Origin: Escherichia phage EP75
Strand: one strand, 5' to 3'
DNA length: 64,000 bases
Sequence record: MG748547
The notes below the pieces were generated by a model, which saw only the letters and a list, made by a program, of their open reading frames with translations, was not told the DNA's origin and ran no database searches. Positions 22,515 to 55,114 of the stretch are shown here, one piece after another. Both the position numbers and the translations under genes were made by a program. How positions within the stretch are numbered: the first letter of the stretch is position 1; each line of letters starts with the position of its first letter.

Positions 22515-22590
22515 TGGTGACCCTGGCTGGACTTGAACCAGCGACCAATCGATTATGAGTCGACTGCTCTAACCACTGAGCTACGGGGCC
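22515..22590 (-). tRNA. tRNA-Met/Ile2-type (anticodon CAT), CCA encoded
   Basis: hand-folded: D-arm GCTC-AGTGGTTA-GAGC, anticodon loop CTCATAA, T-arm GCTGG-TTCAAGT-CCAGC; one C-A mismatch in acceptor stem. Confidence 0.7.
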
Positions 22591-29733: not shown

Positions 29734-29735
29734 AA

Positions 29736-45468: not shown

Positions 45469-45793
45469 AAGAACGGGGCTTGACATCCGTGGTATCTTAA
45501 CCGCTGTCGTGGCTTCTGCATTGGTCTCGGCAGCATCGTTCCTTTGGTTCATGGGCGGGATGGAAACGCGCGTGAATGTATTGGAACGAGATTCCAACAA
45601 GATGGATCAAGTTCTTCAGAAAGTGAATGACATGAGTGAACGTATGGCGATCATGAATACTGACCTCGCATATGTCAAACAAAACATGGCTGAGTTAAAA
45701 CTCAATAGCAGCAGTCTTTCAGATGATGTTCGCACACTGCGGATTACTGTATCTGATTTGCAGCAAAAGGGGAATAACAATGGCCGTCAATAA
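45452..45793 (+). CDS. membrane-anchored coiled-coil protein
   Basis: trimmed to MATQAERTG with GAAGGAGG RBS; one TM helix then heptad-like region. Confidence 0.4.
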   Translation: MATQAERTGLDIRGILTAVVASALVSAASFLWFMGGMETRVNVLERDSNKMDQVLQKVNDMSERMAIMNTDLAYVKQNMAELKLNSSSLSDDVRTLRITVSDLQQKGNNNGRQ

Positions 45794-46532
45794 GATTCGA
45801 GACAAAAAATCTTTTATGAATTATGTCTTGCGTAAATTGGGCGCTCCTGTGATCCAAATTAACCTTGACAGTTCACAAGTCGAAGATGCAGTCGATGATG
45901 CTCTGCAGAAATTTTGGGAATATCATCGTGATGGTAGCCAAGATGCGTTCTTCCTGTACCAAGTTAAACAAGAAGATATCGACAAGGGATATATAGAATT
46001 CCCCGATGATATTGACGATGTGATTGAAGTTATCCCTGGACCTCCTATTGAGTCAATCGGAAACTGGGCAACTCCTCAATGGCAAATGGCTCAAGCAATG
46101 CTTGTCCCCAAAGCAGCGCTGGTTTCTATTCGTCTCATTGATTATGTTTCCATGCAACAACGTCTGTCGGATATCACAAGCGTCTTAAATGTTCGCCGTA
46201 ATTTTGTGTACAAGAAGTTCCAGCGACGCCTTTACCCGCAGTTTGCTGCCATTGTTGATGAAACCCTGGCTTTTCGTTGTTATCAAAATATCGACCCCGA
46301 ATCGGAAGAAAACGCTGAAGCATGGAATGATATGTGGTTGAAAGCGTATGCGACTGCATTGGTCAAGCGCCGTTGGGCAGAGGTGCTTAAGAAGGCAAGA
46401 GGCATCCGTCTCCCTGGTGGTATCGAACTGGATGGTGATAGTATGTTCAGTGAGGCCGAGACCGAGATAGAGCGGCTGGAGGAAGAATTGCGTACTGGTC
46501 AGCAATACCCTATCGATTTTATGATGGGATAA
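45780..46532 (+). CDS. neck protein (T4 gp13-like)
   Basis: position immediately upstream of gp14-like gene in T4 order; start trimmed to MAVNKIR. Confidence 0.45.
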   Translation: MAVNKIRDKKSFMNYVLRKLGAPVIQINLDSSQVEDAVDDALQKFWEYHRDGSQDAFFLYQVKQEDIDKGYIEFPDDIDDVIEVIPGPPIESIGNWATPQWQMAQAMLVPKAALVSIRLIDYVSMQQRLSDITSVLNVRRNFVYKKFQRRLYPQFAAIVDETLAFRCYQNIDPESEENAEAWNDMWLKAYATALVKRRWAEVLKKARGIRLPGGIELDGDSMFSEAETEIERLEEELRTGQQYPIDFMMG

Positions 46533-46535
46533 GAG

Positions 46536-46565
46536 AAGGCGGGTTATCCCGCCTTTCTTTTTATA
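46536..46565. terminator. bidirectional terminator AAGGCGGG-TTAT-CCCGCCTT + TCTTTTTAT
   Basis: between convergent genes. Confidence 0.55.
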
Positions 46566-46773
46566 ACTTGATGTCGCGTCCGGAAGGATCTGAATTTGCT
46601 AGAATATAACCATCAACCACGTTCTTTTCGTCCCACCATTCAATAAAATCATTACCCTTTTCGCCTTTGATAAGACCCACAATGTTATATGAACCATCGG
46701 CGATTTTAGCATCTACACAGATAATTCTCACACGCCTTCCGTCACGAGTTTCTTTAATATCTTCAACCTTCAT
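46561..46773 (-). CDS. hypothetical small protein
   Basis: 70-aa ORF adjacent to endonuclease cassette. Confidence 0.4.
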   Translation of the reverse strand: MKVEDIKETRDGRRVRIICVDAKIADGSYNIVGLIKGEKGNDFIEWWDEKNVVDGYILANSDPSGRDIKL

Positions 46774-46800
46774 TTATCAATTCCTCAAAAGAATTAATGA

Positions 46801-46857
46801 TTGACTAAATACCTTCAAAATTGAGGGTAAAGTCATGGCTACTTCAAAATATTTCTG
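46801..46857 (+). repeat. 57-bp degenerate direct repeat of the gp14 promoter/5' end (copy 1, truncated after 7 codons)
   Basis: ACTAAATAccTTcAAAaTTGAGGgtAAAgTcATGGCTACTTC vs 47577..47633. Confidence 0.6.
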
Positions 46858-47549
46858 ATAAAATCTACGACTGATCCATCGTATACAAACCATTCGGTAG
46901 CACCGTCAAAATCCTTATACCCCGCGCTCTTACACATTCTATGGGCAATTCTTTCCAACCTGGAAACAAATAATCCGTCGGTTGAATTAAATATTTCTAG
47001 AACGTTGAAGTAAAACGGGGTGGTGCTTCTCAAACAATTTATACGTTTCTTAGGCGAGTTGGTTATTCCCACTTTCATACAACCTTCGTCGTTGACTAGA
47101 ATATATAAGAAACCTTCCTTAGAATAATTGTAACCCGATTCTGCGCAATACGGACACCAACTTCGGCTGTTGACTAAATTACCGTACCTGGATTCCCACC
47201 TGTGCGTTTCAGAACATTCCATGACACAAATTGTCACGTTGTCTTTGTACTTCCCGCCAATGAAATTTATGAATTTACCACCGTTGCTTACGGCGTACTC
47301 CGATATCCTGATTTTAGCTTCTTCATTTGAGATCTTCTTGTTTCCACGACACGAAGGACACCAACTTCCTTTATTTATCAAATTCGCATAAGTTGCTGAG
47401 TTCCATTCATGACCAAATTCGCAAGACAAAATGCACTTAGTTTGGTTGGTGACAAATTTACCACCGACAAATCCGTGAAATATTCCACCTCTAGAAGAAG
47501 CATATGATTTGATTCTTTTAGAAGCAATTCCTTCTGTCAGGACGATCAT
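46839..47549 (-). mobile_element. free-standing endonuclease-like gene: two zinc-ribbon repeats (CxxC...WCPxC) + C-terminal T5orf172/GIY-YIG-like domain
   Basis: 236-aa ORF opposite to flanking late genes; repeated GGKF...GHEW...NL(I/V)N.GSWCP(S/Y)C; C-terminal GFLYILVN...KVGIT...R; flanked by direct repeats. Confidence 0.5.
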
Positions 47550-47576
47550 ATTGATTCACCTTAAAAACAAATTCAA

Positions 47577-47583
47577 CTAAATA
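47577..47583 (+). promoter_or_regulatory. late-promoter-like motif CTAAATA
   Basis: 24 nt upstream of gp14-like ATG; part of repeat copy 2. Confidence 0.4.
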
Positions 47584-47607
47584 TATTTAAATCTTGAGGA
47601 AAATATT

Positions 47608-48249
47608 ATGGCTACTTCTCGATACTTCAATTACACTGCACACCAAGGTACTCAAAAATTAATTGATGACTTGGTGGTCGAGATGATACAATTGCGTGGG
47701 ATTGACGTCAAGTATATCCCACGTTCTATTGTTGAAAAATACCCAATTTTAAACGAGGCTGAACACAAATTCGACCAAGCGTTTGACATCGAAGTGTACA
47801 TGCAGGATTATCAAGGCTTCAACACACAGATGTGGGAAAAGTTCGGCGGTATCCAATTACAAGATGAAGTGACCTTCACTATTGCTCGTCGTCGTTTTTC
47901 AGAAGTTATTGGTAATGGTCCAGGCCTTGAACAAATGCCTCAAGAAGGTGATTTGATATATCTGCCTATGGCTAACAAAATATTTAAAGTGAATAACCCG
48001 AACAACGATGAAGAATTCATGCAATTTGGGAAATGGTACACATATTCCCTACCATGTACGTTGTTCCAATACGGTAACGAAGATTTCGATACAGGTGTAT
48101 CTGAAATAGACGATATCGATAAACGATTGCAGGATCTGGAAGGAGACGGTGTGTACAAAGACGCCAGCCTGCAAACGGATAACCAATTTGCGGACGAAAT
48201 AGAGAAAGATCTTTCGCCCAATAAAATGAAGATAGACTTCGGGGAATAA
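47608..48249 (+). CDS. neck protein (T4 gp14-like)
   Basis: IQLRGIDVKYIPR and EGDLIYLPMANKIFKVNNP resemble remembered T4 gp14 segments. Confidence 0.55.
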   Translation: MATSRYFNYTAHQGTQKLIDDLVVEMIQLRGIDVKYIPRSIVEKYPILNEAEHKFDQAFDIEVYMQDYQGFNTQMWEKFGGIQLQDEVTFTIARRRFSEVIGNGPGLEQMPQEGDLIYLPMANKIFKVNNPNNDEEFMQFGKWYTYSLPCTLFQYGNEDFDTGVSEIDDIDKRLQDLEGDGVYKDASLQTDNQFADEIEKDLSPNKMKIDFGE

Positions 48250-48251
48250 TC

Positions 48252-48950
48252 ATGGCCAGACCATTTGAAAAATATTTCTATCATGAATCATTGTTGAAAT
48301 ACATACATGTGTTCAACGCTATCATGTCAGATTTAAAAGTCAAAACCGAACGTGGCTTGATGGAAATCCCGCTGCATATGGCCATTGGCCGCCGTAATGA
48401 CCTCAACAGGAACGTGCCAGCCAATATGCTGCCATTTGCAACAATGTCCTTTGGTCAGTTCGAAATCAATAAACAGGTGACGAAGTCATACCACAACCAA
48501 ATATCGACCGCTACGGCACGGTCCAAACAACGCATTCCGATCATTATAGATTTTGAATACAATATCAGAACTAAAAAATTGGTCGAAATGTTGCAAGTAT
48601 TAGAACAAATTTATTCTGTGTTCACTCCTTCTATTGATTGTCAGATAAAAGACAACGATACGCTATCTCAAGATCAGAACGTGAAGATAATGTTGGTAAA
48701 TCACACGATTTCTGACAACTGGGAAGGAGACGCAACAGAATCACCACACATAGATTGTTCATTCAATTTTCAATTACATGGTCACATCTATGGAGAAGAT
48801 TATTGGGTTGATGATGGTTCGGGCGGTGGGGATCCAAACGTCATCAAAGAGATAATTATTGAAATGTCTAATGATTTGAACATGCCATGGTCGGAACTTC
48901 CTGAATGGTTCCGAGTTGATAAAGACGGCATACATCATCCGGAGGATTGA
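48252..48950 (+). CDS. tail completion / sheath stabiliser (T4 gp15-like)
   Basis: synteny gp14-gp15-terminase; weak motif similarity. Confidence 0.45.
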   Translation: MARPFEKYFYHESLLKYIHVFNAIMSDLKVKTERGLMEIPLHMAIGRRNDLNRNVPANMLPFATMSFGQFEINKQVTKSYHNQISTATARSKQRIPIIIDFEYNIRTKKLVEMLQVLEQIYSVFTPSIDCQIKDNDTLSQDQNVKIMLVNHTISDNWEGDATESPHIDCSFNFQLHGHIYGEDYWVDDGSGGGDPNVIKEIIIEMSNDLNMPWSELPEWFRVDKDGIHHPED

Positions 48951-49633
48951 TCATGAGCAATATGTCAGAAAGGTTACTCGCCACACTTGATGCGGTGACT
49001 GCCCGAGACGAAGTTGGGAAGGAGGCAATGGAGGCTGTCGCCCCTCGTCCAGGTATTGACTTCGATGAAAATACAGGTGAATGGTTTGGTGAACGTCCGG
49101 AAGGGTATCAGCCGATTCCTGAACCGCCTTCATTGGAGGATATTGCTTCCAAGGAATCCAAAGTACCTGAGTTTGCGGACACTGATGCTACAACGGATTA
49201 CAAACGGATACGCGACACAACATATGCCATGCAAGAAGCCACAATGTTCATGATGGGACAAGCCGCTAAATTGGCTGCATCCACAGAAGCTCCGCGAGCA
49301 TTTTCTGTTTTCCGTGAATTGGGTGAACTCATGCGCGGTCTGAATAAAGACCTGATGGAAAACCAGAAAACCATCAAGGCGGTGACAGGTGATAAAGAAC
49401 CACCTGTTGATGACACGACAGTGGATGTTACAACTTCACCAGACGGAACAACAACAGTATCGGTTGGGAAAAAGGCGCGATCTTCTCGCGATTTATTGAA
49501 GACGATTGAAGATGCCCGTCGTCGCGCTGAAGAAAGAGCACAAGCAAAGGCCGCACAACAACCAGAAGATGAAATCATTGATGGTGAAACAGTTGATGTG
49601 AAGGAAGAAGACGATGGCGTATCAGAAGCGTGA
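48947..49633 (+). CDS. terminase small subunit (gp16-like)
   Basis: immediately upstream of and overlapping terminase large subunit. Confidence 0.5.
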   Translation: MIMSNMSERLLATLDAVTARDEVGKEAMEAVAPRPGIDFDENTGEWFGERPEGYQPIPEPPSLEDIASKESKVPEFADTDATTDYKRIRDTTYAMQEATMFMMGQAAKLAASTEAPRAFSVFRELGELMRGLNKDLMENQKTIKAVTGDKEPPVDDTTVDVTTSPDGTTTVSVGKKARSSRDLLKTIEDARRRAEERAQAKAAQQPEDEIIDGETVDVKEEDDGVSEA

Positions 49634-51824
49634 TATAGAATATGCCCCAATTAAAACGGGGTTCAAAATAGACGATGTGAAATTGCGTATGGACCAAACG
49701 TTCATGCGCAAACCTTCTGTGCGTGCTCCCCGAGTCGAGTTAATGCTGACAGATGAACAAGAAGACGAATTCGTTGAATGTTCTATGGATGCACACTACT
49801 TCGCCGCCAACTATTACAAGATAACCACGATCGATAAAGGCTTTATCCTTTTCGATATGCATGATTATCAGAAGCAGTTGTTCCACGACTTTCAGGACTA
49901 TCGATTCAATGCGGTCGTCCAGGCTCGTCAGTCCGGAAAATGTGTAAAAGGCGACACGCTTGTCACAGTTTACGATACTCTCAGCCAAGAGGAGTTGCTC
50001 CTGACTATAGGGGAGCTTCACAGTCGCTTCGAGGACGTCAACCACGCTGTGCCGCTGAATACCATTGGCAACCATGACAAGTTCGTGGACAGCCGCTTCG
50101 GCAAACGTTACTTTGTACAATCCGATAGTGGCTGGGTTCCGGTTATCGCAGCGCATAAGACGAAGAAATATGCGGAATTCGTTATTGTCACCGTTACCGG
50201 AAGGCGAATTAACGTGGCCGATGAACATATGTTCTTCACTCCGGACATGAAGGAGATATTTGCCAAAGACCTGAATGCTGGGTCATACATCATGACGACA
50301 GAAGGTCCAGAAGAAATCCGTGAGATTTGGCAGACTGGTGAATATCACCATATGTACGATCTGCAGGTCAAATCTAGTGATCAACGTTATTACACGAATG
50401 GCTTTCTCAGTCATAACACGACCGTGGTGGCGGCGTTTCTTCTTTGGTACGCGATGTTCCATTCTGATAAGGAAATCGCAGTACTGGCAAACAAAGAGAA
50501 ACAAGCGATAGAAATTCTTGACCGTATCAGAAAGGCATACCAAGACCTTCCATTCTTCCTTCAGCAGGGTTGTGAGAAGTTTGGTTCTACCCTGATAGAG
50601 TTTGAGAATGGTTCTAAGATATACGCTTATGCCACGTCTTCGGACTCCATCCGTGGTCGTTCTGTATCGCTCTTGTACGTTGACGAAGTCGCGTTTATCG
50701 AAAACGACTTTGAATTTTGGGAATCAACTTTCCCAGCCATTGCATCTGCCGATACATCACGCTGTATTTTGACAAGTACTCCGAAAGGCCAGCGAGGGTT
50801 GTTCTATGATATTGTCACCAAAGCAGATCCGCGCCATCCACAATACAACGACTTCCACCTAACTGAAGTCCCATGGTATAAGGTTCCGGCATATACCAAA
50901 GATCCAGATTGGGAAACCAAACAACGTGCCCGTCTGGGGGATGCTCGTTTCGATCAAGAATTTGGCATTAAGTTCCGTGGTTCCGTGGGTTCATTGATTC
51001 CGGCCAAATGCTTAGATAAAATGACGTCCAAGTTGTATCGGGAACCTAATGAATTCACCAAGATTTATAAGGAATACGACCCACAACGTCTCTACTTTGG
51101 GATTGCGGACACTGGGAAGGGGGTGGAAGGAGATTATTCCGTCTTAACAATTCTGGATATAACTGAATATCCGCATGTTATAGCAGCCAAGTACAGGAAT
51201 AACACGATACCTCCTATGATGTATGCATACACGATAGCTGATATGTGCACCGAATACGGGGAATGCCCTGTCCTTGTTGAAACAAACAACGACGTCGGCG
51301 GTCAGGTTATTACAATTCTTTATCAAGAGATAGAATATCCAGAAATCATATTCACATCAACAGATAACAAAGGGACGGGGAAACGGATTGGTGGACGTAA
51401 ACCGGAACCTGGTATCAATACCAACAGAAAAGTCCGATCTATCGGTTGTGCTAACCTGAAAGCGCTCATTGAGAAAGAAATGTTGGTGATAGAAGACCAG
51501 GACACGATAGATGAACTCAGTACATTTGTGTTCAAAGGCGCTCGGTATGAAGCCGATGACGGTTGTCACGATGACTGTGTCATGCCGTTGGTCTTATATT
51601 CATGGGCGGTAAAACAAGAATGGTTCAGTGATTTGACATCTACAAGTATTTCTCAGGACATGAGAAACCGAATGTCTTCAACTGAATCTCAGCAGGTATT
51701 CCCATTTGGTGGTTTAGTCGTTGGAGACACCCCATCCGAAACTGAGCATTTGCCTGGTTTCGGGGGTATTCAAGTTTTCAACGAAATGTCAGGGATGACC
51801 ATGGATGAGTGGTTTAAGAATTGA
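49614..51824 (+). CDS. terminase large subunit (gp17-like), intein-containing precursor
   Basis: Walker A QARQSGK|TTVVAAFLLWY split by insertion; 736 aa precursor, about 574 aa after splicing. Confidence 0.9.
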   Translation: MAYQKRDIEYAPIKTGFKIDDVKLRMDQTFMRKPSVRAPRVELMLTDEQEDEFVECSMDAHYFAANYYKITTIDKGFILFDMHDYQKQLFHDFQDYRFNAVVQARQSGKCVKGDTLVTVYDTLSQEELLLTIGELHSRFEDVNHAVPLNTIGNHDKFVDSRFGKRYFVQSDSGWVPVIAAHKTKKYAEFVIVTVTGRRINVADEHMFFTPDMKEIFAKDLNAGSYIMTTEGPEEIREIWQTGEYHHMYDLQVKSSDQRYYTNGFLSHNTTVVAAFLLWYAMFHSDKEIAVLANKEKQAIEILDRIRKAYQDLPFFLQQGCEKFGSTLIEFENGSKIYAYATSSDSIRGRSVSLLYVDEVAFIENDFEFWESTFPAIASADTSRCILTSTPKGQRGLFYDIVTKADPRHPQYNDFHLTEVPWYKVPAYTKDPDWETKQRARLGDARFDQEFGIKFRGSVGSLIPAKCLDKMTSKLYREPNEFTKIYKEYDPQRLYFGIADTGKGVEGDYSVLTILDITEYPHVIAAKYRNNTIPPMMYAYTIADMCTEYGECPVLVETNNDVGGQVITILYQEIEYPEIIFTSTDNKGTGKRIGGRKPEPGINTNRKVRSIGCANLKALIEKEMLVIEDQDTIDELSTFVFKGARYEADDGCHDDCVMPLVLYSWAVKQEWFSDLTSTSISQDMRNRMSSTESQQVFPFGGLVVGDTPSETEHLPGFGGIQVFNEMSGMTMDEWFKN
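49941..50426 (+). other. mini-intein (162 aa, Hint domain only) inserted in terminase Walker A P-loop
   Basis: begins Cys (CVKGDTLVTV), block B GRRINVADEHMFFT, block F/G MYDLQV...NGFLSHN, +1 Thr restores GKT. Confidence 0.75.
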
Positions 51825-53780: not shown

Positions 53781-53805
53781 CCCCGCTTCGGCGGGGTTTT
53801 TATTT
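53781..53805 (+). terminator. rho-independent terminator CCCCGC-TTCG-GCGGGG-TTTTTATTT
   Basis: identical to 40241..40265. Confidence 0.65.
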
Positions 53806-54588
53806 CCTGCTGATATGCCATCCTGTAGTGTTTGTTCTCTTCAGTGAAGATTTCCTGTAAGGTTTAGGGATGGGATTCTGCATCCTTCCAGCTAATGCCA
53901 TGTTGAAAGATTCTATACACAAACATTGTTCTTGACAAAATTTGTTTAGATTCTTGATTTCATATTTTTCACCATCTGGTGAAAGAAGTGTAAACCATCT
54001 TCCGAGAGATCGTTTTATTTTCTCTTGGTATTCAGGATTCATGCGCACTTTGTTCATAGCGGCACGGAGATTTTCTTTACATTTTGGATTTTCGTACGCT
54101 TTCTTCAAACATTGTGAATGTATATGGCGTTTGTTTTTGTCCCAAGCCTTGGTTTGAGATTCAGACATTTTCGTTTTTGTTTCTTCGGAAAGTTTAATGC
54201 CTGTCATTGAATGAACAAACAAAACATTCCAACCAGCATCTTTAACTGGTTTCATCCCGATGAATTCTCTGGTTTCTATATCATATGCTGCTGCCATACC
54301 CGATATGTCTATTTGACCACCATGACTGATGTTCAGTCCACCTTCAGAGATATGAGTCTTATGTAATTTTATGAGTTCAATTTCTTTAGAATTTAGTTCA
54401 TCGACTTGGCATTCCAGCAATATCTCTTGGTCAGTAATTCCATATTTTCGGATATAATTGTAGAGGATAGTTTTATTTCCTCTTCTGGCCTCACCCAGAT
54501 GCTCCTTTATTCGGTGTTCAACCCCATTTCTTGTTTGTCCAATATACTTCTTTCCACCAACGATTAACATGTAAATGTGACCGATCAT
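53800..54588 (-). mobile_element. GIY-YIG homing endonuclease (Seg/I-TevI-like) with NUMOD-like C-terminal repeats
   Basis: MIGHIYMLIVGGKKYIGQTRNGVEHRIKEH; start trimmed to MIGH with GGAGGTG RBS; opposite strand to flanking sheath/tube genes. Confidence 0.7.
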
Positions 54589-54655: not shown

Positions 54656-55114
54656 ATGATATACGCATACAAAATTGAAACGATAACTAATGGAAAGGTC
54701 TACATCGGTGTGACCAATCACCCACAACGAAGATATGATCAGCATTTTGCGAATGCTTTTCATCATGGAGTCCAAAGTGAATTGTATGATGCCATGCGTA
54801 AGTATGGAACATCTGGATTTACTTTCGTTGTAATTGCTCAGACCGATGAAGTCCATAAATGGGAATTAGAGAAGCAACTCATCGCTCAATATAATTCTTA
54901 TGAGATGGGTTACAACATGAATAAAGGCGGTAATGATGGAAGTCATATGCTGGGTAAAACTGCAGCAAAATTGACATCTACAGGTGAACACATTGGTCTT
55001 GTTTCTCTCATAGATCCCCGTTGGGAATTGTGTGAAATCGAACCCGTTTTAAGCAATGTTGACCACGGATTTGATTTTTCTTCCATGAAGATTAAAAGAT
55101 TGACGACTAATTAG
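54656..55114 (+). mobile_element. GIY-YIG homing endonuclease-like protein
   Basis: MIYAYKIETITNGKVYIGVTNHPQRRYDQH. Confidence 0.6.

Follow-up and report, generated by a model that had tools for sequence, protein, structure and literature searches.

Organization of the locus

The DNA analysed here is a 64,000-nucleotide stretch from Escherichia phage EP75 (MG748547), referred to below as the window. Its subject is a minus-strand gene for a putative free-standing homing endonuclease, which is found between the genes of two neck proteins, gp13 and gp14, and is flanked by two versions of the gp14 promoter and gene start. Over the full length of positions 45700-48400 the identity to Salmonella phages D5lw and aagejoakim and to Escherichia phage PhaxI is 98.9-99.3%, and judged by its sequence the source phage is a member of the genus Kuttervirus (Ackermannviridae).

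The region starts with the plus-strand gene for a gp13-like neck/adaptor protein (45780..46532). A bidirectional terminator (46535-46556) is common to this gene and to a minus-strand gene for a 70-residue protein (46561..46773), a homologue of Vi01_165 (phrog_4466, E 7e-44). The endonuclease gene, also on the minus strand (46839..47549), encodes 236 amino acids and was assigned from the list of open reading frames (ORFs), from Pfam and from a match to the endonuclease family phrog_681 (E 1e-58). The host gene of the insertion, functional gp14 (47608..48249, plus strand), encodes a gp14-like neck protein of 213 amino acids (head closure, Hc2; Pfam T4_neck-protein, E 1e-26; phrog_679, E 2e-74). 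A gene for a gp15-like sheath stabiliser (48252..48950, plus strand) is next, and the genes for the small and large terminase subunits come after it.

An earlier interpretation made from the DNA alone, here called the sequence-only reading, had let the endonuclease cassette begin at 46561. This holds for the endonuclease gene and the repeated gene start, but not for 46561..46773. The 70-residue gene is also present in the insert-free genomes CBA120, Vi01, XF4, Ag3 and EspM4VN; it is therefore a resident gene outside the cassette, and we rejected it as a cassette component. In all Ackermannviridae examined this gene is conserved in antisense orientation between both neck genes and is followed by the bidirectional terminator.

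Insertion into the gp14 coding sequence

The locus was compared with 235 matching phage records, 46 of which cover it fully and carry the endonuclease gene. The other 189 (e.g. CBA120 and Vi01) have an empty site that is exactly 773 nucleotides shorter and matches in two pieces, so that the same query spans 1928 nucleotides in empty alleles and 2701 nucleotides in those with the insert. Relative to these genomes the insert corresponds to 46856..47628. The sequence-only reading had proposed just this comparison with relatives lacking the insert; insert-free alleles do exist, and the junction that they define is precise. The flanks of the window are 99.3-99.5% identical to the endonuclease-free phage CBA120. 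Hence, the endonuclease gene is a presence/absence polymorphism at one precise site among close relatives.

In the empty genomes the start of gp14 reads ...GACTAAATACCTTCAAAATTGAGGGTAAAGTC ATG GCT ACT TCA AAA TAT TTC AAC TAT ACA... The window agrees as far as TATTTC (46855) and then continues with TGATAAAATC..., which on the complementary strand forms the 3' end of the endonuclease gene. gp14 returns to its native reading at AAT TAC ACT (47629), past a second, different promoter, ribosome-binding site and ATG...TTC. By this alignment the insertion lies within the gp14 coding sequence, after codon 5-7. The sequence-only reading had placed it between gp13 and gp14; it is not strictly intergenic. 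The endonuclease ORF ends in the resident gp14 remnant: its last 5-6 codons are read from the opposite strand of this sequence, as is its stop codon, a TAG that lies opposite the CTA of ATGG-CTA-CTT.

Microhomology and small indels that differ between the alleles leave the junction ambiguous within 46849-46855; three alleles (LIMEstone1, GEC_GOT and the metagenome contig L009) diverge directly after ACTTCAAAA, with indels of 1-3 nucleotides. The allele alignments place the joint between codons 5 and 7 and do not fix the exact breakpoint. In a further junction class, represented by 'barely', FrontPhageNews and the metagenome contig L011, only the native promoter is retained. This class could result from a deletion between two CTTCAAA motifs of the window class or from an independent insertion.

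The two gene starts

The left copy (46797..46858, plus strand) is the resident late promoter and start of gp14 with codons 1-7. It contains the promoter motif ACTAAATA (46804-46811), the ribosome-binding site GAGGG (46823-46827) and an ATG at 46835, from which ATGGCTACTTCAAAATATTTCTGA (ATG GCT ACT TCA AAA TAT TTC TGA; 46835..46858) encodes MATSKYF-stop. The truncation noticed in the sequence-only reading is therefore real. The empty-site alleles of CBA120 and Vi01 match the left copy at 100% identity as far as TATTTC. The right copy starts in a cassette-borne intergenic module (47550..47607). Here, the replacement late promoter ACTAAATA (47576-47583) is embedded in a perfect palindrome, TAAATATATTTA (47578-47589), and is followed by the gp14 ribosome-binding site GAGGAAAA (47596-47603, plus strand). 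On the opposite strand of the module AAGGTGA forms the ribosome-binding site of the endonuclease gene. The first 10-12 codons of functional gp14 (47608..47643, plus strand) are either cassette-borne or co-converted.

A repeat search returned the pair 46814-46855 / 47587-47628 as a direct repeat of 42 nucleotides (71% identity, spacing 773) and, as a second match, 46804-46819 / 47576-47591 (81%). When 46797-46855 and 47569-47628 are aligned globally, 43 of the 58 paired bases are identical, with three one-base gaps; the functional copy thus differs from the native site by 15 mismatches and three one-base gaps over ~60 nucleotides. The local score of copy against copy is 24, compared with 11.6 +/- 1.5 (maximum 16) for 300 shuffles, and the next-best match in the window, which is another late promoter, scores 19. 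That the late promoter and the first gp14 codons occur twice, as had been stated, is confirmed.

The motif ACTAAATA present in both copies occurs 11 times in the window (1.7 expected), each time 25-50 nucleotides upstream of an ORF start with a ribosome-binding site. Judged by this pattern, it is what the late promoter of these phages should look like. Further boxes of this kind are located at 29735, 32860, 35096, 40288, 51827, 54629, 57435 and 58653 on the plus strand and at 22515 on the minus strand, and they precede most structural genes. Those at 29735, 32860 and 35096 extend as ACTAAATACCCC, followed by an inverted GGGGTAT directly before the start codon. These elements could form a hairpin between promoter and ribosome-binding site.

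Origin of the right copy

Despite the similarity of the two copies, the right one has a different history. Dickeya phage LIMEstone1 belongs to Limestonevirus and thereby to another subfamily. Its arrangement matches that of the window, its left copy is the native Limestonevirus start, and its record annotates a putative late promoter on both strands of the right-copy module. Between LIMEstone1 and the window the identity reaches 93.5% for the endonuclease gene and 97.8% for the right copy, whereas gp13 (76.4%), the 70-residue gene (70.1%) and the rest of gp14 (75.5%) are far more diverged. The endonuclease and host-genome phylogenies of Kuttervirus and Limestonevirus are therefore discordant. 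A blastn search with an 85-nucleotide probe from the right copy returned exactly 39 phage records with at least 96% identity, all of them endonuclease-positive; no endonuclease-free source lineage for the right copy was found among these matches. The other seven endonuclease-positive records (FrontPhageNews, Se-I, Hercules type) have a different start, which is likewise recoded. In the metagenome alleles L009 and L011 the right copy is conserved as well.

Since all 39 carriers of the right copy are endonuclease-positive and the LIMEstone1 right copy is 97.8% identical on flanks of 70-76%, the right copy is DNA of foreign origin and moves together with the endonuclease gene. The sequence identities demonstrate a horizontal transfer of the gene and its gene-start patch between subfamilies. 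The sequence-only reading had spoken of a duplicated promoter and gene start. Two copies are indeed present, but not as a local duplication, as the left one is resident and the right one foreign.

The foreign origin is also visible in gp14 itself. Compared with CBA120, eight of its 12 differences fall within the first 39 nucleotides (Fisher p = 4e-8), at gene positions 12, 13, 14, 18, 24, 27, 30 and 36. Six are silent third-position changes, in codons 4, 6, 8, 9, 10 and 12. The remaining two change codon 5 from AAA to CGA and cause the sole amino-acid exchange, K5R (MATSRYF... instead of MATSKYF...).

The endonuclease

The sequence-only reading had described the product of the minus-strand gene as a 236-residue protein with two zinc repeats and a C-terminal T5orf172/GIY-YIG-like domain. 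The ORF list, Pfam and PHROG agree with this description. All Pfam matches are above the curated cut-offs: CapR in two stretches (E 3e-13; 50.2 bits, cut-off 24.2) and, at residues 146-231, MUG113 (E 3e-9; 37.8 bits, cut-off 22.3) and T5orf172 (E 1.3e-6; 29.3 bits, cut-off 20). The two tandem CapR-type treble-clef zinc modules (residues ~20-70 and ~88-137; 47139..47492, minus strand) have four ligands each, C39/C43/C64/C67 and C108/C112/C132/C135, of which C43, C64, C67, C132 and C135 are invariant across 20 homologues. They are presumed to be the sequence-specific DNA-binding part.

The T5orf172/GIY-YIG catalytic domain comprises residues 145-232 (46854..47117, minus strand). Its invariant residues include G146, L148, Y149, K159, G161, R169, E199, H203 and G216-A-T-E219-W220. 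Among these, the residues to be expected in a GIY-YIG-type centre (Y149, K159-x-G161, R169, E199 and E219) are invariant in eight alleles and homologues; their equivalence to a solved active site is putative. In a structure model the predicted alpha/beta fold of the domain matched GIY-YIG nucleases in a fold search, and the zinc region consists of a repeated unit of a helix and three strands. A sequence search of the PDB with the 236-residue protein gave no meaningful match. With tblastn, relatives were found in 671 phage records, mostly at less than 40% identity; amino-acid identity to members outside Ackermannviridae is 25-37%. For one other T5orf172 protein, ICP1 Gp88/Odn, cleavage of DNA in vitro has been shown, and an E180A exchange abolishes it (PMC8263062).

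None of the 46 endonuclease-positive records has a disrupted ORF. The ratio of nonsynonymous to synonymous substitution rates (dN/dS) between alleles is 0.05-0.26 (about 0.1), with 0.43 for one mosaic pair, and such values indicate strong purifying selection on the protein. The C-terminal tail varies among alleles (NILK*, NNF*, KNF*, NEFLK*, NTFEGI*). In the LIMEstone1 allele (L006, 1358..2065) CPYC is replaced by CPYY, so that the last zinc ligand of module 2 is gone, and the tail is frameshifted to KNF*. Both features may represent early decay or tolerated variation.

Allele diversity and exchange at the site

At least four endonuclease alleles with 64-100% amino-acid identity, mosaics included, are found at this one site, and the flanks around them are 99% identical. 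Within Kuttervirus, the site is found in four states on near-identical backgrounds: empty, window-type, 'barely'-type and a type of 309 amino acids (FrontPhageNews, Se-I, Hercules) that has a third zinc module. At the amino-acid level, the 'barely' and window types share 65% identity. Two metagenome contigs from further Ackermannviridae lineages have the same site and the same right copy with alleles of 76% and 64% amino-acid identity; one of them keeps the ATG stub, the other the promoter only.

The 'barely' gene (L005, 1306..2022) is itself a mosaic. Its 3' 550 nucleotides are 100% identical to the three-module type of 309 amino acids (FrontPhageNews gene: L004, 1305..2234), its first ~25 nucleotides and right copy are 94-100% identical to the window type, and its middle zinc module is just 58-72% identical to either. 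In phage KE31 (L017, Kuttervirus), a 49-nucleotide stretch left of the endonuclease gene (~1270-1320) is identical to Limestonevirus/Aglimvirinae. Hercules (L016) is Vi01-like on the left (99.7-100%) and CBA120-like in gp14 nucleotides 40-340 (99.3%), and GEC_vB_GOT (L015) switches from CBA120-like to Vi01-like ~340 nucleotides into gp14.

The end of the conversion tract varies as well. Codon 10 of gp14 is foreign in the window and native in 'barely' and KE31. Different tract ends in near-identical genomes argue for recent independent transfers. Clustered gp14 changes, variable tract ends, the KE31 patch and the switches in Hercules and GEC_GOT correspond to co-conversion of flanking markers. 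These exchanges agree with the view that such nuclease genes sit at genetic-exchange boundaries (PMC10448857).

The acquisition is recent relative to the Kuttervirus divergence, while the element family is old, with alleles at the same site down to 64% amino-acid identity. Therefore, the suggestion of a recent intronless homing event can be kept for the homing, which is supported by the empty sites and the discordant identities, and for the acquisition, but not for the element family.

The empty site as presumed target

From promoter to codon 8 the empty site is near-identical, including silent positions, across Kuttervirus, Limestonevirus (XF4), Agtrevirus (Ag3, EspM4VN) and a Klebsiella phage, although these endonuclease-free phages differ by ~25% overall. 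The near-invariant length is 57 nucleotides. Within the native gp14 promoter and start it contains twin CTTCAAAAT motifs (46813-46821 and 46842-46850), which are 29 nucleotides apart; this motif has just three copies on the plus strand of the window. All functional starts linked to an endonuclease gene have changes in both motifs, and the two left-junction classes of the endonuclease alleles each fall at a CTTCAAAAT motif. Four changes from the native site are common to all carriers: C to T in the spacer, GGGTA to GGA.., TCA to TCT and AAC to AAT. A conserved site in the empty alleles, split in the carriers and accompanied there by a recoded functional copy, is the pattern of a homing gene. 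We infer that the segment from promoter to codon 8 is the recognition site and that the two zinc modules probably read the twin CTTCAAAAT motifs. Together, empty site and recoded patch give a concrete target prediction for a T5orf172/CapR endonuclease, and no recognition site for a homing member of this group was found in the literature searched.

Proposed mechanism

We consider it probable that the 5' end of gp14, an essential gene, was the point of entry for a free-standing homing endonuclease cassette, which brought along a patch for the gene start. During co-infection with an Ackermannviridae phage that lacks the endonuclease, the protein would cut the naive gp14 at GACTAAATACCTTCAAAATTGAGGGTA..ATGGCyACTTCAAAATATTTyAAC, and the break would be repaired by copying the endonuclease-carrying genome. 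The left homology arm would be formed by the 70-residue gene and the retained native promoter/start remnant, the right one by gp14 beyond ~codon 10. Since the insertion interrupts an essential coding sequence, the cassette carries a recoded replacement of the displaced part: the patch of late promoter, ribosome-binding site and gp14 codons 1-10 would restore gp14, and the old start would be left as a seven-codon stub. The carrier is presumably immune to its own enzyme, as the insert divides the native site and the functional copy has been recoded, both at wobble positions and in the spacer between promoter and ribosome-binding site.

For the expression of the endonuclease two candidates emerge from the sequence. 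One is the palindromic late-promoter element TAAATATATTTA in the cassette. The other is a sigma-70-like promoter inside gp14, TTGACG-17-TATCAT (10 of 12; 47683..47711, minus strand), which is directed toward the endonuclease and 70-residue genes and would normally serve the latter; in empty genomes it would serve the 70-residue gene alone. Its conservation in relatives is uninformative because it lies within conserved codons. The native late promoter that has been retained is directed into the endonuclease gene in antisense orientation.

Three observations weigh against the proposed mechanism. The left remnant retains most of the presumed target, both CTTCAAAAT motifs included, and immunity therefore requires a site that reaches to the right of 46855, which is an assumption. 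The loss of a zinc ligand in LIMEstone1 implies that some copies may be decaying. Finally, the DNA of Ackermannviridae contains hypermodified thymidines (PMC8472413), and the enzyme would have to cope with them.

Alternative explanations

The similarity of the two copies that flank the gene could also be explained by a local duplication of the gp14 start in an ancestor, followed by the arrival of the endonuclease gene between the copies and by divergence of the right copy in place. Inheritance would then be vertical with losses, the empty sites being later precise deletions, and recombination between the copies could indeed delete the insert. However, the right copy is 97.8-100% identical across two subfamilies that differ in native starts and flanks, while each left copy matches its own lineage, the empty sites never show right-copy substitutions and are near-invariant across four genera, and the cross-subfamily identity of the endonuclease (93.5%) is far above that of the flanks (70-76%). 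The comparison of left and right copies, the LIMEstone1 identities and the linkage of the right copy already contradict such a duplication, and we regard it as extremely improbable. A group I intron or another RNA family was rejected on the basis of a cmscan search, which found no intron family at E <= 1 in 46300-47900; the sole match was weak and terminator-like. The element is neither an intron nor an intein: besides the lack of an intron match, the endonuclease gene runs antisense to gp14, which forms a complete ORF and has a promoter and a ribosome-binding site of its own.

Two further explanations accept the cassette but assign another role to its protein. It might be a domesticated DNA-binding regulator that binds the late promoter and start of gp14, no longer cuts and would spread through general phage recombination only. 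There is precedent for this: the satellite protein CapR, which belongs to the same zinc-module family and derives from endonucleases of this kind, represses transcription, and I-TevI also acts as an autorepressor at a late promoter (both PMC8096241). Moreover, the right copy (at least 96% identity in 39 records) is more conserved than the endonuclease coding sequence (54-78%, window compared with the 'barely' type), which suggests a functional DNA element, and LIMEstone1 has lost a zinc ligand. Nevertheless, the catalytic-domain residues do not vary, and the whole protein, nuclease domain included, has a dN/dS of about 0.1. The gene is missing from most close relatives and is therefore dispensable, which does not fit a core regulator. 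The silent recoding of the functional start is to be expected under target immunity, and the exchange boundaries are located at the endonuclease gene. A regulator thus seems unlikely to us. Similarly small is the chance that the element is a homing cassette in origin whose copy in the window is now a (nearly) inactive hitch-hiker that persists since its precise removal is hard. Homing endonuclease genes typically decay once fixed, and the C-terminal tail varies among the alleles. In contrast, purifying selection is strong and the ORF is intact in all 46 endonuclease-positive records; empty alleles still dominate, and the element is therefore far from fixation; and the differing conversion-tract ends in near-identical genomes imply recent independent transfers. 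An active homing cassette with a gene-start patch remains the preferred explanation.

Comparison with known systems

Proteins that combine T5orf172 and CapR domains have been described as a class of putative homing endonucleases that phages carry near essential genes (Netter et al. 2021, PMC8096241; Barth, Dunham & Seed 2023, PMC10448857). In domain architecture the gene described here agrees with those of vibriophage ICP1 and other phages: a C-terminal T5orf172 domain is preceded by tandem zinc modules of the CapR type (same sources). Like the ICP1-type genes (PMC10448857), it is free-standing, adjoins essential structural/packaging genes, marks an exchange boundary and shows shuffling of DNA-binding modules. 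Unlike them, it lies inside the coding start of its host gene together with a replacement promoter and start, and no such in-gene, start-replacing arrangement was found in the parts of that paper that were consulted. Limestonevirus genomes contain 14-25 homing endonuclease genes whose positions vary between isolates (PMC8472413); a mobile endonuclease at this locus is therefore expected and unsurprising.

With the fungal mitochondrial mobile endonuclease ORFs (mORFs; Allomyces macrogynus atp6; Glomus atp6, atp9, cox2 and nad3; PMC3630166) the element has several features in common. They likewise insert within a coding sequence, a diverged but largely synonymous foreign gene end keeps the gene functional, and the native end persists alongside as a useless or unexpressed remnant that is near-identical to insert-free relatives. 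The mORFs differ in affecting the 3' end and in having the endonuclease ORF co-oriented or in frame, whereas here the 5' end and the promoter are replaced and the endonuclease gene is on the opposite strand. Host (a phage) and nuclease family are different, too. The element works like an mORF but is not a member of that group.

SegF of phage T4 is said to show intronless homing, as reportedly described by Belle, Landthaler and Shub in 2002. The Seg/Mob genes of T4 (SegF, SegB, SegG, MobE; for SegB see PMC8472413) resemble the present gene in being free-standing GIY-YIG-superfamily genes between late or essential genes of a T4-related phage. Their presence among relatives is likewise patchy, and adjacent genes show a localised divergence consistent with marker exclusion or co-conversion. 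In Seg proteins, however, a canonical GIY-YIG domain is N-terminal and the DNA-binding part C-terminal, whereas the present protein has the opposite order and a nuclease of the T5orf172 type. Seg genes lie between genes and leave no duplicated gene start, while the gene in the window is located within gp14, leaves a stub and is antisense to the flanking late genes. I-TevI, the GIY-YIG enzyme encoded in the T4 td intron, differs in its domain order, which is the reverse of the one in the window, in its DNA-binding modules and in its intron, which is lacking here, where the host ORF is restored with no need for splicing. In the limited literature searched, no phage precedent was found for a duplicated or replaced gene start beside a free-standing endonuclease gene. 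The family is known, and the portable promoter/start patch is a modestly novel feature of the present member.

The general picture of phage homing is unchanged by this element. It is, nonetheless, a clean natural experiment on a selfish nuclease gene inside an essential gene without splicing, for which public genomes with 99% identical flanks offer empty sites, four cassette alleles, mosaics and cross-subfamily transfers. It also explains an annotation oddity in Kuttervirus and Limestonevirus, the extra 'hypothetical protein' and stub ORF between the neck genes, and it marks a recombination boundary that can mislead gp14-based phylogenies.

A wider reading would combine two ideas, and taken jointly we find it doubtful, if conceivable. 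The patch may exemplify a general, undescribed phage strategy that allows free-standing endonuclease genes to enter essential late genes at the coding 5' end with neither intron nor intein. A second minus-strand GIY-YIG cassette (~53800-54587) with a new ACTAAATA promoter and ribosome-binding site hints at such generality. In addition, the cassette may be a small regulatory unit, in which the zinc modules read the twin CTTCAAAAT motifs of the native site, the palindromic TAAATATATTTA promoter fires toward both gp14 and the endonuclease gene, and the retained native promoter limits nuclease expression by driving an antisense RNA or as a non-cleavable decoy.

Other putative mobile elements in the window

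The large terminase subunit (49614..51824, plus strand, 736 amino acids) contains an apparent mini-intein at residues ~110-260, from C-VKGDTLV to LSHN|T. Its Intein_splicing match of 29.6 bits is below the Pfam cut-off of 35.8.

A second endonuclease hot spot occupies the gap between the tail sheath and tail tube genes (~53800..54587, minus strand, and 54656..55114, plus strand). The minus-strand GIY-YIG-like ORF, which is fully covered in just 17 of 195 related records, adjoins, in divergent orientation, a plus-strand GIY-YIG gene that is also present in Vi01. This hot-spot cassette leaves no duplicated start. Like the gp14 cassette, it supplies a late promoter and a ribosome-binding site: where Vi01 has the native upstream region of the plus-strand gene, the insert puts a new one with ACTAAATA (54629) and GAGGTGA.

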